A stretch of 62,137 nt of DNA, filler included, from Hausera hauseri (GCA_046269625.1; 10 parts of 10 records of this genome joined end to end with filler, not necessarily neighbours in it), one strand, 5' to 3'; numbered from the whole stretch's first letter, positions 27,651 through 38,797 are shown. Notes: generated from the letters alone by a model not told the origin. Made by a program: numbers and translations.

Positions 27651-29002
27651 GCTATACATGTCCTTTAAGAAACTTACAACTTAATGATCTATTTGTTTTT
27701 CATGTAATTAACTAATGAGGTGAAAGGTAAATAGATAAGAGGCTAATACATCATTTGTGAAATATTAGATCTGACAGATGAACTTATAATGGGCATTTGA
27801 TTGAATGCAGTTGCTGTAATCGGTTTTTCCATGCGAATTCCCGAATCGTTCATCATACTCGGTAAACGTATCGTCAAAACACGTTCGGACATGGAATTAT
27901 TCGATTGCAGATTATCGGATTCAGCAACAGTCAAACAACGAGACGAATTATTAACATTATGTGGTTGATTTGGTTCCTGTGAATACGGATAGAATTTGTT
28001 GAAAACTGACGGATTTTCTGATAATAAAATGATTTGTGACCGTGCTAAATCTCCCGGTTATACACAACAATGTGCAAAATAAAACTTGTTCCACCAATTG
28101 ATGATTTGGGCAAATAATTAAACGACGTTTGATGAGAAACATCTGTGTCGAAATTGATTGGTACCTGTGGAATTTCTGACTACCAAGTGTAAAATTAGAT
28201 CCACTTTCAAAAACGAATCAAAAATAACGTGCCAGAAAAAAATTCATGAAGTATAAATAAAATTTTGAAACTTCACTATTTGTTGAATTCTGAAACAAAA
28301 GTGTATCTATATATACATGTTACAGTTGGGGTGGCCCTTACCGTCTCCCACTATAACAATATTAAATTCAAATTAGATGGCTTTTCAGCAGGTTAGGATT
28401 ACTCGTTCTCGAGTAATCTGCTTGTGCCTTATTAAATTTTAGATAAGTTATATGCAGATGCGGGTACTGCTTGCAAGGAAACTGCGTGTCTTAAGTTATA
28501 TTCTCTCAACTTAACTATGTATTTTAAAGTAGATTTTATGCTTATGGTAGTCAAATCATCCTTAAGGGACGATGAGAAACTATATAAGGATTTTAACAAA
28601 CAACCAACTGAATAATAACCTTTATTTGATACACGCTCCACAAAAGTTTCAACAATCACCGTAGGATATAGTCAATTTAGATTACTGAATTTGATAGCTT
28701 GAAAATTGCTTTGTTTCGAACGGCTCTAAAGTCGTCGAGTGATTTCTCGTTTCTAAACTTCTGATTTCTGTCGTTTATTGATCTGTTTTTATAGCATCAG
28801 ACCTTGCAGTACAATATTTGTTGTCGGTTAAATTCAATTTCGTAGATTGATATAACACTTATGTACAAATAAAACTCAATTATCTAGATTTCTAAAACTA
28901 CTTCGATATTTGTTTAGTTCACAATTTTCCACTTTCTTATTCAAACATTTTCCATTAGAATAATATTTACATTTACAATAGTAATTCACAATGTTGACAA
29001 AT

Positions 29003-31452
29003 TTACAATTTTCTCAGCGTGTTGACTGTCATTTTCTCACATTTCTCCTCCCTGAGCGGCATCCTCGGAGGAGTCCATTGCGTCAGAAGAGGTGGCGCCC
29101 AAAGTTTTAGGTCGTCTTAACTGATTCATTCTTTCGGGCAGGTCTGTTGGTGAATTTCGATGTTCTCGATTGGTTACTGGGCTTATTTCCAAATTATAAC
29201 TATAATAGGGTTTGATCCGAACAATTCATGTGTAACTCCCATCAGAATAATATTTCAATTCTGTGTCCTCTGCCCGACATACTGGGCATGTCGTTTTTCC
29301 ATTGTCGAGAATCCGTTTCTCCAGACAATCTCGACAGTATTTGTGGCGGCAATTATGGTTGTCTAATACCACATATCCTTGCCTCAAATTTGCGTCGCAT
29401 ACAGGACATTCGTTATTATCTTTGTCCCAATCATCTCTGTCTAAGTCGACTTGAATGGTTAGTTCGATGGGTTTAAACACAAGTCTATCTCCATCTTGGT
29501 ACAGGTATCCGTGTATTACCTTTTGTTTAGGGTTAATTGAACTTTTACGTGTGTCACAGTCCACTTGTATCAGGGTCAAATCCGCAATACGATCCTTGTC
29601 TAGGTCGGGAATCCTTCCTTCTATTTTATATTTTTGGTATTGTTTTTTCAGCAATATTCGAATTTGTTTATCCACATGTACTATTATTTTTCCTGTCCTC
29701 TTCGAACGAAAAATTGATGTGAGGTAAGTTTCAAGTGTAGTGTTTTCTCCTACAAAGGTTTTTCGAAGACTTCTCCTGCCGGAGCAATTTTGATGAAAAA
29801 CATGGCATCCTTTATTATCTTTTTGCCTTGTAATATTCGGTGGTTACCAGAATTCTGGGAAAATCTTGGACTGTTCTACAATGTACGTATCCTTTTATTC
29901 TTTTACCTATTAGGGCATTAATTTTCGTTATTATGGGATTCCTAATTCCCTTTCTAAACGGTTTTATCTTTTGTGGGGTACTTGGCCTGTCTTGTTGGTT
30001 CTCCACTTCTTGTTCCTCATCTTCCCTTTTCTTCTTAAATAGATAATTATAAATGGATAACGTCTTCTTGGGCTGGGATTTTTTTTCTAACTTTAGCTTT
30101 TTAATTATTGTTTCTGATTTTGGTTCCTCTGAAGACTTTGATGTTCCCTCCAATATCTTACCCTTCTCTTTGATCGTCTGTAATTCCGTTTTACTTCTCT
30201 GTTCTCCTTTTGGTTCTGATACTGCAATTCTAAGACTATGCTTGTCTGTTGGCTGGACAGTTCGGATCGGGAAGTAAGGCTTGATGCTTTTTCTATATCT
30301 GTCATCTATTTGCTTGGGTTTCAGAGAACTACGTAAATTGTATTAAGGGTTTCTAAGAGCCCATTCATGTTCCCATTTCAATGTCTTATACATTTCCTGT
30401 ACATGCTTAAAACGTTGGCTGGCCGTTAGGAGTCTTGGAATTCTGTTTAAATCACTGCTCATCGCTTCGACCATTAGTTTAAAGAAAGCTTCTGGTGCGG
30501 TCGGTCGATTCCTTCCTTGCACGGTTTACTTCATCCGTTCTTGGACTATTGGATGAGTGGCTATTTCCCTAAGTCCGGCAATATTTGCATCGGCTATTTC
30601 TAATAGCTCGATCTCTCGTCGTACATTGTATCCAGCTAACATACAGCCGTAAAGACAATGGTCTAACTCTGAACGGACTTGCTGGATATCTTTTCCTCTT
30701 ATGAGCTGGTCTCTTCTCAAACCGGTTACTTCTGCGTATGACTCTTGGACATGTTTCCGGCGGTTTATAACTGTAGAATATATTTCAGTCCCATCTCTTT
30801 CTCTAATAGATATTTCGATGGGTATTTCATATCCATCATCTCCTCTGCCACAATTTATTGCTATAATTCTTATGTTGCGACCATCTTTGACTAGCCTATA
30901 TGACTGACGATGTTCGTCCTTTTCTAGCTCGGTTGGAGTTTGTTCAAACTGTAGAACTGACAAGCCTAAGTTGCAGTTCTCTCTGTATGTCACTTCAAAC
31001 ATAAGTTTGACAGGAAGAGTTGCTACTCTAAATTCCAGACCATAGTGGATACTTTCTAAGCCCTGTCTATTTATTCTAAACGTACTAAACAGATATTGAT
31101 GCCCTTCATTGGAATTCCACGGTTGACCTTCTACTCTGTAATATAGTTCTCCGTCGGCTAGGTGTATGTATACATCTTGAGTTTTAATAGTTCGTTCTGG
31201 AATCAGTTCCTTTAGTGAGTATGCTCTTGCTTGATTATTTTCACGCATTGCGTAAAGGTAAAGGGTTCGATTTTCTTCTGTTATACCTTTTAGGTCACTG
31301 GGAATTTCGGTTACCTTTGAAAATTCAATAAAAGTTTCTGCTTGGAGGGCGTCGGTTATGCGTCGATAGATAGATTTTGATTTTGGTATAAATACTGTCG
31401 CATGTTCCTTTAGGAATTTGTCGACACTAATTCGGCTGATCATACTTACCAT
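29003..31452 (-). pseudogene. Accessory ORF: unknown N-domain, degenerate DEDDh (REX4/ISG20-like) exonuclease, linker, C3HC4 RING
   Basis: 31452-29815 is one frame with isolated stops. IIAINC...ISI...G.EIY...VTGLR..L..GKDI.QV..EL...LYG.MLAGYNV...LREIA. The RING follows after a frameshift. Homologue at 55590-56879. Confidence 0.65.
29226..29675 (-). pseudogene. C3HC4 RING finger domain
   Basis: CPVC-x13-CRHKYCRDC-x12-CPVCR. Confidence 0.85.
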
Positions 31453-36500: not shown

Positions 36501-37079
36501 TCTGACGATAGCGTGATATTTTCCGTTAATTGTCTTGATTCTCCATTTGGATATAAATTATTATTTGCCATTTCACTGATACGACTGTCGACGAGCGGTT
36601 CTTGAGGTAGTGGACTTGGGATCGAACATAGTTTTGGGTTCTCGCAGATTGTTGATTTTGATTCTGTTTCGAGGTATCCTCTTTGAGTATAATATCCCGT
36701 GATCGTTTTCTGTTAATCCTTGGTTAATGACATTCATTTTCAGTAGCACACCATATTGTTTCGTTCCTTCATAAGGGTCTTCATAATCAATGGGCTTGTG
36801 GTAGATTTCGGACTTATATGACATGACTGATTTTCGGTCGCAGTCTTAGTATACTTGTGCGGTTGGTGGCATGATGGGCAATGGCGCGTTAATCACTAAG
36901 TACATCCTGCGCATCTTTATCCAGGAACTCGCTTCTCCTCCCTCAGGCTCGTCATCATCTGAATCATCCTTTCGTGTTATTGTTTTCTTGTCTTTACATC
37001 TATATAGAATCGAGGGCCTTCCTCATCTTTTGATATTATAGTAACCGACGTGACATTCTACGTCATTTTTCCATCGATT

Positions 37080-38797
37080 TTCTTCGTAGGCCTTAAGTAT
37101 TTTTGCAAAAGGCGTGATAATTGCAGTCAAAATTTTGCAGAAGAATCCTGTTAATGTGAATATTTCATATTCGTTTATAACAGCTTGGATTACTGCCTTA
37201 ATTAACTGGACTAAAAAGTAAATGGCTAGGAATCCAGATGCGGCTCGTCCGAAAATTAGAAACTTCCCCAAATCTTATACAATATTTCTGAAGTTGCTCT
37301 TTGATAGTGATTAGCACCGAATACCGATTCCAATTTCGCTTGAAAGGGGGTGTTATCCATGACCATTGACATGGCCCGATTCAGTTCATAAGTTTTTTGT
37401 CGCCGAAATGCTAAGAATCGCCTAAAAGCCTCTATGTCTTTTGGTCTATAAATTCATTTATTGGCCGTGTCCTCCAACTTGTCTTTTGATAATCTTTTGA
37501 TTAGATTTATTTCGGTTAGCTTACTAGGGGCTACAGCAGCGCCTCCATTATGTAAACTTATCCAGTCGATTCCACTACGTCGAAACATGGGTTTACCTAG
37601 GCTCGTTTTGCATTCCTTTAGTATTGTTGGTTCGGTTGAGTTTGCCAGTAATACCCTGGTGAGCGGCACTGCTAGCCTGAGCATATTTTCATAGATGACT
37701 GGTAATTCTTGCATACATCTTTTTTCTTCTACGTTGATCAGCACGTCTCTTTTTTCGCATTCTTAAGTCCATAGGACTTCTCCGGTAACTTGTCCGAAGA
37801 CACCTTCTTTCATTGGTATAATTGGTGATGCCAGTTCTGGATTGGCATAAATTAAGGCCAATTTGGTTCTTATGACTTCAGTATCTAATCTGCAGTCATT
37901 CGTTATCATTTTGTGGTTTAGTTTTGCTATTCCCGTCTGTCCTTTGTAATAGAAATAGTCGTTTCGATTTTTGAGGTAATCTTTGATCCGCACATCTTGT
38001 GTTTTCAAATCGTACTTTTTCATGTTAATTTTTGTTTGTGCTACAAAAAATGCTTTGTAGTTTGTGACATACATAACTACATCTCAGCGCGTTAACATAT
38101 CCTTTCTAATAAACTTCAATCCATGTGCATCCGATATCAATATCGTTGGTGTGGGATGCTCTATTTCATCTACCCTTGATCTGGTATTTCTGTGTAATTT
38201 ATTTGTATAGCATTTTCCGGTTGTCCCATTAAACTTTAACTCTTTGATTTTGATGAAATTTTAATCTCTCTTGGAAGGTGGACTCCATACAACGACTGAA
38301 CTTCGAAACGTGCAAGCTCCATCTTGAATGCGACATTTTTGATTTTCGGTAAATAGTTTAGTAACACTATGAAGCATCGCTTTAGGGATCTTAAGTCGGT
38401 TTCGTAAAAATCCACTACTATTCCTCCTTCCTTTCCCTTCCGGGTGTCATATTCTGCTCCGACGCAATAACCGGTGTACATGTTTAATTTTTCTACTGCC
38501 ACTTTGTAGTCTCTAATTATTTTTCTTCTTGGGCTTCTAACTCCATGCCACCCCAAACCATTTTGCCGGTTAAGCGGGCTCCTAAACATTGCTGTCTATC
38601 CACATTCATTGGGATTGATGGGATGGTTGGTTTGATTACTGAAGAATGACCATACATATAACCACAAGGAAATATGTTGCGGGATCTCCGTATAATGCAT
38701 TCCGTCGCATCCATTGCGATTAATTCACGCTGTTGGTATAGTGTATTTTTTTTTGTTGTCTCGAGCTTATGAGGTCTCGCATCTTCACATGTTTCTA
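37080..38797 (-). pseudogene. env: Chuvirus-type glycoprotein (copy 3)
   Basis: LYQQRE...ECIIRRS..FPCGYMYGHSS...QCL...YCVGAEY...GEVL...CMQELPV...FLIFGRAASGFLAIYFLVQLIKAVI. Confidence 0.8.

Follow-up and report, generated by a model that had tools for sequence, protein, structure and literature searches.

In the Hausera hauseri genome (GCA_046269625.1) we identified what are probably the broken remains of a giant Burro-like Ty3/Gypsy element, which would have made a polyprotein with two membrane proteins, budded as an enveloped particle and produced a pseudo-exonuclease by readthrough of a stop codon. The whole stretch of DNA analysed, hereafter the window, consists of ten contigs joined end to end by N-spacers (62,137 nt). 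The element of interest lies on the minus strand of the contig at 27332-38797, which contains no N and on which Pfam domains are found in the order Monjiviricetes_fusion (PF24664), RVP, RVT_1, RT_RNaseH, Integrase_H2C2, rve and RING. A single gap-free contig therefore does carry, as the preliminary description held, a glycoprotein, a linker, PR-RT-RH-IN, a second membrane protein (predicted to contain fibronectin-III-like, or FN3-like, domains), a pseudo-exonuclease and a RING.

Module order and its copies

The four further diverged copies with partial order that had been described are likewise present, as contigs 64-80% identical that repeat parts of the same module order. Copy 1 (1..6330, plus strand) runs from a CCHC knuckle through a putative ubiquitin-like domain, a weak Bcl-2-like segment and a signal-like segment to the glycoprotein and linker, and copy 5 (22884..27231, plus) carries glycoprotein, linker, PR, RT and RH, mostly in a single frame. 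Copy 8 (43030..47608, minus) extends from PR through the second membrane protein, and copy 9 (50046..56879, plus) from the linker through the pseudo-exonuclease. All five window copies are broken. Intact ORFs, the inclusion rule of the gB-type GAG-ENV-POL errantivirus study, are absent from all five and occur only in distant relatives, and no intact or LTR-paired family member was seen among the copies examined. Along the reading path of the copy on contig 27332-38797 there are 17 in-frame stops and about a dozen frameshifts; 15 of its 16 alignable stops correspond to a sense codon in another copy, the exception being the junction stop discussed below.

Every shared module is under purifying selection between copies, with pN/pS of 0.13-0.62 across all modules common to the window copies and near-saturated synonymous sites (pS 0.51-0.84). 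In intact distant relatives, Gag through the second membrane protein forms one ORF of 2,600-4,800 aa, and long single ORFs with G-PR-RT-RH-IN are among the top matches of the glycoprotein. Because of this selection and these single-ORF relatives, we conclude that the modules belong together, and independent nested insertions, against which the order had to be checked, were rejected as its source. Short contigs and a repeat-rich genome are what an artefact of nested insertion or assembly would call for, yet the same order recurs in copies with near-saturated synonymous sites and in unbroken ORFs of other data sets; such an artefact is highly improbable, and is refuted for the order glycoprotein-Pol-FN3-exonuclease.

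The claim that copy 1 adds Gag upstream stands, since a CCHC knuckle lies at 380-430 (E 7.5e-7) and about 3.7 kb precedes the glycoprotein, but the claimed length of at least about 15 kb without LTRs does not: direct summation gives about 14.6 kb with the 724-bp candidate LTR and about 13.9 kb without it, the start of Gag being missing. The position of a gB/chuvirus-type env between gag and pol was pieced together from two overlapping window copies. Glycoprotein to RH is in one frame in copy 5, and Gag to glycoprotein in one frame was seen in relatives only. Domain matches in relatives include Bcl-2 in P0008, ubiquitin in L002 and L003, and ankyrin in P0154 (4,844 aa). Schmidtea env motifs recur in 12 of the 160 sequences tested, among them most top relatives, and appear by eye to be degenerate in the window. 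Locus scans of viral contigs and genome contigs gave no match.

Pol and the two membrane proteins

The aspartic protease (36125..36421, minus; RVP E 1.8e-6), the reverse transcriptase with YLDD and RNase H (34376..35500, minus; RVT_1 E 2e-26, RT_RNaseH E 1e-20) and the integrase (32950..33972, minus; H2C2 zinc finger, Integrase_H2C2 E 8.6e-11; DDE core, rve E 5e-10; and a motif that we take to be GPY) follow one another in the PR-RT-RH-IN order of the Ty3/Gypsy (Metaviridae) type. Among PDB entries the copy-5 RT matches Ty3 RT best (E 8.8e-64, in a comparison set without BEL/Pao RTs), with later matches to an 'enzymatic polyprotein' (E 8.8e-46), presumably caulimovirus-type, and to retroviral RTs (1e-28). 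RVT_1 occurs with RT_RNaseH in the 120 homologues listed for the RT, which is 40-45% identical to that of the relatives. In two trees the window RT, long-branched, groups with the 10 glycoprotein-bearing relatives at supports of 0.28 and 30 (the latter from a quick tree), and in a third, where long branches met, it stands apart from those 10. The pol order and the best PDB match agree with the earlier assignment to a complex Ty3/Gypsy element with its RT inside that group, and a BEL/Pao identity was rejected, as pol matches Ty3.

The gB/chuvirus-type fusion glycoprotein (37035..38797, minus) is broken, its N-terminus is cut by the contig end, and it matches PF24664 in three separate frame pieces (E 1e-20 to 2e-8), with a membrane anchor region at about 37271-37083 (minus). 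It is about 30% identical to intact relatives, and its pN/pS between copies is 0.22-0.25. A sequence search gave no relative with a solved structure, and a word-index homologue search among longer proteins gave no match for a fragment of it. In copy 1 the glycoprotein is preceded, on the plus strand, by the ubiquitin-like domain (3350-3439; E 4e-4) and the weak Bcl-2-like segment (3874-4038; E 0.07), each scoring highest among 60 frames and lying at its expected place, and by the signal-like segment (4168-4218). From the anchor to the protease extends a predicted cytosolic linker (36422..37034, minus; pN/pS 0.31-0.5), which in copy 5 is in one frame with glycoprotein and Pol. It contains PTAP- and LYPx3L-type motifs, which we take to be late-domain-like (budding) motifs. 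PTAP is found in copies 1 and 5 and is altered in two of the four linker copies (PTAQ on contig 27332-38797, PTTP in copy 9), and LYPx3L is found in copies 5 and 9 and is altered on contig 27332-38797. Of the 9 linkers located in relatives, 8 show an [LMIH]YP motif by eye (6/7 after merging near-duplicates).

On the other side of Pol, an internal signal-peptide-like segment (32879..32941, minus) lies in the same frame as the integrase and at the same position as in intact relatives. It is followed by two predicted FN3-like domains with a Thr-rich spacer (31753..32322, minus), a TM segment (31657..31728, minus) and a short tail, so that the second signal/ectodomain/TM protein flanking Pol, as first described, is indeed there. 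A profile from intact relatives matches 32022-31753 (E 1.7e-7) and 32322-32110 (E 0.009), none of the other 60 window frames scoring better. A direct comparison by profile, copies 8 and 9 against the ectodomain of the relatives, gave a weak match (P 0.0056), and a Pfam search of the relatives' ectodomains gave no fn3 match. The FN3 domain pair of a relative has a predicted fold (pLDDT 74) that matches FnIII tandems at E 3e-8. At least two hydrophobic segments follow the integrase in 8/8 relatives extending past it, the signal-like one of L001 being seen by eye only.

The FN3 protein most likely would act in attachment or in cell-cell contact. A less likely possibility is that it acts instead on the cell that makes it, at whose surface it would be a receptor decoy, an adhesion aid or a superinfection block, and that the element moves mainly within or between touching cells. 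Such a role would agree with the top structural matches of the relative's predicted FN3 fold, which are the host cell-surface receptors LAR, sDscam and Tie2, with the pN/pS of 0.5-0.62 that makes FN3-TM-tail the fastest-evolving shared module, and with an ectodomain that appears exchangeable because P0019 and L004 carry another type after the integrase. It fits poorly with the finding that distant relatives all have FN3 fixed in the frame of env and pol, by which its amount would be tied to particle production.

The junction stop and the accessory genes

After the tail of the second membrane protein comes a UGA (31557-31555) followed by CAA-CTA within a hairpin, after which comes a second one (31488..31571, minus); the same UGA-CAA-CTA stop is found in copy 9 at 55485-55487. 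Across 381 contigs UGA-CAA is invariant (no variant at or above 3%) and the next codon is only CTA or TTA, and within the window CAR-YYA follows just 12 of 6,508 stop triplets. Decay to a premature stop was rejected as the origin of this UGA, given its conservation in the 381 contigs and its being the only alignable stop that is not a sense codon in another copy. By sequence, a stop that has CAR-YYA next to it and an ORF continuing in frame corresponds to the type I readthrough context, and the conserved stop in its hairpin likely lets some ribosomes read through into the pseudo-exonuclease.

Alternatively, the junction might be an RNA element serving packaging, splicing or re-initiation, with the pseudo-exonuclease made separately from a downstream ATG, as in relatives; this is a lesser possibility, but one with evidence of its own. 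An ATG lies about 35 codons past the stop in both copies, the stop sits within a stem-loop, the 31 codons behind it show no coding-type third-position bias (mismatches 4/7/6), and in L001 and L002 the polyprotein stops lack CAR-YYA and the exonuclease is a separate ORF. What speaks for readthrough instead is that the CAR-YYA context is exact and occurs in both of its permitted variants, that the reading frame is open from the stop to the ATG in both copies, and that a long stem could form downstream of the stop, at z -2.4 in one copy but weakly, at z -0.8, in the other. Of 92 aligned windows, only the junction has z <= -2 in both copies, as judged from a hand-placed window and two sequences, and the sole Rfam match there was to a miRNA, below threshold (E 0.49).

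The ORF behind the stop (30253..31554, minus; pN/pS 0.37) contains an N-terminal domain of no known type and the DEDDh-like domain (about 30870-30370). Its alignment with the RNase_T/DEDDh ORFs of two relatives spans 300 columns (hhalign E 2e-5), and both window copies with the domain have other residues at the catalytic D/E, D and H/D positions, which bears out its naming as a pseudo-exonuclease. In both relatives with enough flank (L001 and L002) the polyprotein is followed by a DEDDh ORF; the catalytic D-E-D-H-D residues are present in L002, and in L001 too except for one D-to-E. A word-index homologue search gave no match for the window ORF, and single-sequence fold prediction reached only pLDDT 35.

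Further downstream lie a basic low-complexity stretch and a C3HC4 RING (29414-29274) in a region (29040..30252, minus; Pfam RING E 1e-8) whose reading frame runs on to a polypurine tract (29042..29053, minus). Behind it is a candidate 3' LTR of 724 bp (28318..29041, minus) with TG...CA ends and AATAAA at 28779 and 28626; summed contig depth is 707-10,640 in bins over it versus 34 in the next flank bin. This LTR is unproven, because no second LTR was found on contig 27332-38797 or elsewhere in the window, where the element's 5' end is missing. The RING reported earlier is present on this contig and was seen in one of five window copies, the other four ending before its position. It is rather unlikely that only one subfamily acquired it, or that it is a nested piece and no stable part of the family. 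None was seen downstream of the polyprotein in L001 or L002, and comparison with the Atlas gave weak look-alikes only (viral RINGs at 0.85-0.86), as such a capture would predict; against it stand the location of the RING 5' of the polypurine tract and candidate LTR, and a summed depth of related contigs over its bins of 1,626-2,055 versus 34 in the flank, which is not a copy number.

The proposed element and known systems

The ancestral polyprotein likely had the order Gag-ubiquitin-like-(Bcl-2-like)-glycoprotein-PR-RT-RH-IN-second membrane protein and was threaded through the membrane. Two internal signal sequences would put the glycoprotein and the FN3-like ectodomain into the ER lumen and leave Gag and Pol cytosolic, Pol staying attached to the glycoprotein tail until released by the protease. 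The PTAP/YPxL-like motifs of that tail may recruit ESCRT for the budding of enveloped particles, and the gB-type protein would fuse membranes. Occasional readthrough of UGA-CAR-YYA would then likely yield the DEDDh domain, which lacks its catalytic residues and probably binds RNA or helps to evade silencing, and the RING just 5' of the polypurine tract is probably a ubiquitin ligase. Such roles in attachment, budding and host modulation we infer from sequence. More tentatively, the element might represent a clade of complex invertebrate retroviruses with an entry system of two components, a class III fusogen and, apart from it, a host-derived tandem-FN3 attachment protein, both cleaved from a flavivirus-like polytopic Gag-Env-Pol-Env2. 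The tail of its glycoprotein would carry late domains for ESCRT, and the pseudo-nuclease, under readthrough control, and the RING would be antagonists of host defence.

If this is true, a conserved second surface protein with a receptor-like fold, which is a candidate receptor-binding protein, would together with the budding motifs and regulated accessory genes speak more strongly for a virus life cycle than env does by itself, and would bear on whether env-bearing Gypsy elements outside insects are truly infectious viruses. It also suggests that giant Burro-type polyproteins can be read as alternating cytosolic and lumenal proteins, with Pol packaged via the envelope tail and not as a plain Gag-Pol fusion. 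As the layout exists in unannotated intact relatives, it is directly checkable in public flatworm genomes.

The lineage is not undescribed, as had first been supposed, nor is a Gypsy env always single and 3' of pol. In the available text of their study, Chary and Hayashi report a gB/chuvirus-like env adjoining gypsy pol in GAG-ENV-POL order in Nematoda, Bryozoa and Platyhelminthes (PMC13524379), and the available text of Arkhipova and Yushenova describes Burro of planarians, whose 4,873-aa ORF has env between gag and pol in the same frame (PMC6431247). Smed_errantivirus_1-6 (GAG-ENV-POL, HSV/gB-type env) share with our element a Ty3/Gypsy pol and a gB/chuvirus-like env 5' of it; the bryozoan env differs by eye from the window type. 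Flatworm env is of cysteine-bridge class C1a, and it is because the closest published env sequences come from flatworms that a flatworm host is likely. That study annotated gag, env and pol alone, and its available text does not contain 'fibronectin', 'exonuclease' or 'RING' (PMC13524379). Burro/GYPSM1 of dugesiid planarians resembles our element and its relatives in its giant ORF, Gag knuckles, in-frame env, PR-RT-RH-IN and accessory ORFs, and perhaps in its ubiquitin-like and Bcl-2-like domains, whose counterparts in copy 1 are candidates; its env has matches to mononegavirus glycoproteins. Its internal region, however, reaches 25 kb, as against about 14 kb seen here, and the available part of the review makes no mention of a post-integrase FN3/TM protein, an exonuclease or a readthrough stop (PMC6431247). 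We call our element Burro-like, not Burro, because of its span and because MATH, BIR and ankyrin, which are Burro features, gave no Pfam match in six stop-free ORFs of copy 1 or contig 27332-38797. Neither the post-integrase membrane protein nor the conserved UGA-CAR-YYA hairpin stop was found in the searched literature, which leaves out Repbase, GyDB and key figures.

Other systems, again as far as the available texts describe them, share single features. Anakin BEL/Pao elements have the same glycoprotein family on a BEL/Pao backbone, in contrast to the Ty3/Gypsy pol here (PMC10084718, PMC7642597). Juno and Vesta of bdelloid rotifers carry a DnaQ-like (DEDDy) exonuclease, ORF3, in a similar accessory position 3' of pol, but mostly have no true env and keep the catalytic residues, whereas the window domain is DEDDh-like, dead and accompanied by two membrane proteins (PMC5408684). 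An in-frame stop with CAR-YYA, as in the window element, is found in TMV and at the pol/env stop of soybean SIRE1; in contrast to these, the stop described here is a UGA that follows the tail of a membrane protein and would lead into a pseudo-nuclease (PMC2754532, PMC2194720).

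Modules and ends of the element

The giant Ty3/Gypsy element lies on one gap-free contig (27332-38797, minus strand). Pfam searches of 21 frame pieces identified a Monjiviricetes (chuvirus-type) fusion glycoprotein (G), a protease (PR), RT, RNase H (RH), and integrase, as well as a RING domain far downstream; with the signal/TM protein, they confirm the element observed in the preliminary description, whose Ty3/Gypsy assignment is also borne out by Ty3 being the best solved-structure match of the RT. A signal-like segment is in frame with the integrase, and a TM segment lies ~1.2 kb further on. 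Beyond the TM segment, a stop codon precedes an ORF of ~430 codons, which gives way to a basic stretch and then to the RING. The series closes with a polypurine tract (29053-29042, minus strand) and, on the same strand, a 724-bp TG...CA segment with AATAAA as the candidate LTR. The sequence TGTAAA is present three times in this candidate LTR. In the only run that contains the stretch, the summed contig depth was at least 536 in all bins from 28098 upward but fell to 34 in the flank bin beyond them. This drop fits a candidate LTR end near 28318, short of proof; the outermost flank bin, where depth is high again, is probably another repeat. Between the protease and the RT, the interval at ~36040-35800 (minus strand), judged by eye, resembles the dUTPase-like domain reported for Burro.

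Four other window contigs, at 1-6330 (copy 1), 22884-27231, 43030-47608, and 50046-56879, are copies of the same element with 64-80% identity. Copy 1 contains a Gag knuckle, and 5' of its glycoprotein lie a ubiquitin-like domain (E 4e-4), a segment weakly resembling Bcl-2 (E 0.07), and one resembling a signal sequence. An earlier size estimate was at least about 15 kb without LTRs; summing the parts gives 14.6 kb, candidate LTR included. Between the copies, pS ranges from 0.51 to 0.84, whereas pN/pS is lowest in Pol (0.13-0.25) and G (0.22-0.25), intermediate in the linker (0.31-0.5) and the exonuclease-like ORF (0.37), and highest in the second membrane protein (0.43-0.62). The modules thus belong together, and high pS combined with low pN/pS indicates long-separated active subfamilies as ancestors. 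The reading path on contig 27332-38797 contains 17 stops, 16 of them alignable; for 15 of these 16, one or more of the other copies have a sense codon instead. A single frame covers G, linker, PR, RT, and RH in the copy at 22884-27231.

The ten contigs of the window are joined by nine spacers of the form N44-TTAATTAATTAA-N44 (e.g., 27232-27331), and adjoining segments are not genomic neighbours. The remaining five contigs contain unrelated Gypsy (11695-12306, 17379-18796, and 59323-61055) or Polinton-like fragments. A protein-primed DNA polymerase B fragment (DNA_pol_B_2; 41833-42297, minus strand, Pfam E 2e-8) and an ORF ending in a chromodomain (8706-9326, plus strand, Pfam E 1e-4) are presumably Polinton/Maverick remnants. 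A 250-codon open frame with the C-terminal domain of the proteasome activator PA200/PSME4 (21208-21960, minus strand, E 2e-15) adjoins an unrelated Gypsy RT at 18134-18889 and is either a host exon or a captured fragment. The region 13138-15775 is low-complexity and extremely A-rich, with six N gaps.

Intact relatives and the second membrane protein

A search with the glycoprotein fragment gave 212 proteins at E ≤0.001, the best 150 of which were listed; 14 of those listed and three further cluster members were scanned. In ten of the 14, a single ORF encodes G and, after it, either the protease or full Pol; three have G without Pol matches, and one has the integrase before G. A metagenome scan added four loci, and single ORFs in three of them extend over at least 3,426, 3,703, and 2,693 aa. 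All eight relatives that reach past the integrase have an ectodomain between hydrophobic segments thereafter, which is of a different type in P0019 (a protein) and L004 (a locus), and a C-x2-L-x-P-x-T-x-Y-like motif is common to four of five protein tails. Two of the loci, L001 and L002, come from the same sample, and in each the polyprotein is followed by an RNase_T ORF distinct from it.

Folded together with two relatives, the L002 ectodomain forms two beta-sandwiches (pLDDT 74, pTM 0.45), and the top matches of this model are the FnIII tandems of LAR, sDscam, and Tie2 (E 3e-8; whole-chain TM low, ~0.3), with further matches to viral FN3 proteins. The relatives' ectodomain profile hits two domains in the window (E 1.7e-7 and 0.009); direct ectodomain comparison using two other window copies was weak.

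In the RT phylogeny, the ten relatives with a glycoprotein group as one clade (support 96 with 41 of 133 rows and 82 with 36 of 133 rows). The window RT, on a long branch, groups with them without support, and was not joined to them in a tree with a distant outgroup. Taken by itself, the RT neither rejects nor establishes common descent, for which the shared glycoprotein and architecture are the basis.

Several features of the relatives deserve mention. P0005 (HBK71150.1), an intact relative of 2,627 aa labelled as a Flavobacteriaceae MAG protein, is most likely misbinned animal DNA. Aspartic-protease repeats (up to six stretches) and ankyrin and C2H2 matches occur among P0154, P0007, and P0002. 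Residues 1585-1771 of L001, between G and RT, include an additional hydrophobic pair, possibly a third membrane protein. Directly after the polyprotein stop, both L001 (10283-10320) and L002 (11209-11245) contain TGTAAATAAA, which, like TGTAAA, is possibly a polyadenylation or promoter element.

The pseudo-exonuclease and the junction stop

The exonuclease-like ORF of the window aligns over 300 columns with the RNase_T ORFs of L001 and L002, in agreement with its Atlas match (0.87), and has lost its catalytic residues in both window copies. Upstream of it, UGA-CAA-CTA marks the end of the second membrane protein in each of the two window copies that reach the junction. Across 381 contigs over 96 bases, summed depth peaks at >60,000 around the stop versus 3,700-6,700 upstream; UGA-CAA has no variant at ≥3%, and the following codon varies only between CTA and TTA. 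CAR-YYA is given as the TMV readthrough consensus in PMC2754532 and PMC2194720, the latter also listing SIRE1 among its cases. In the window, 12 of 6,508 stop triplets are followed by CAR-YYA. The junction region forms the same two hairpins in both copies (z -3.3 and -2.8), with both-side changes in three of 33 pairs. Among 92 windows compared, it alone reaches z ≤-2 in both copies, although its placement was by hand. Against readthrough are the ATGs downstream of the stop, the absence of codon-position bias after it, and the lack of a CAR-YYA-type signal at the polyprotein stops of L001 and L002. On balance, readthrough at the junction stop is moderately likely.

Predicted function and comparison with known elements

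On the basis of topology, Gag-Ubl would be cytosolic, the first internal signal would direct G, a predicted fusogen, into the ER lumen, and the G anchor would place the linker and Pol back in the cytosol. The second signal would export the FN3 protein, whose TM would be the chain end, and cleavage by signal peptidase and by the viral protease would free the parts. PTAP and LYPx3L motifs, which have a role in ESCRT recruitment, are both contained in the linker and suggest a predicted function in budding. The FN3 protein is likely an attachment factor, while the pseudo-nuclease and the RING would probably act against the defences of the host.

While the interpretation as a complex Ty3/Gypsy element with coherent modules stands, that of an undescribed lineage does not, as gB-type GAG-ENV-POL elements have already been published. 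In the literature searched (Repbase, Grohme 2018, and figures lying outside its scope), there was no report of a post-integrase FN3 membrane protein, of a dead exonuclease behind a CAR-YYA stop, or of a terminal RING. Chary and Hayashi (PMC13524379) describe Ty3/Gypsy elements with a gB-type env, as well as the order GAG-ENV-POL, from nematodes, bryozoans, and flatworms, including six Schmidtea families; the Schmidtea errantivirus env motifs described there recur in the relatives found here. DEDDy ORF3s are described for rotifer LTR elements (PMC5408684). In the planarian Burro, a ubiquitin-like domain comes first, and env lies further on in the same frame, preceded by Bcl-2 and followed by the protease (PMC6431247). 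The window element thus appears to work like a Burro-type errantivirus. It is not classified as a Burro, because the MATH, BIR, and ankyrin domains and the 25-kb size were not found.
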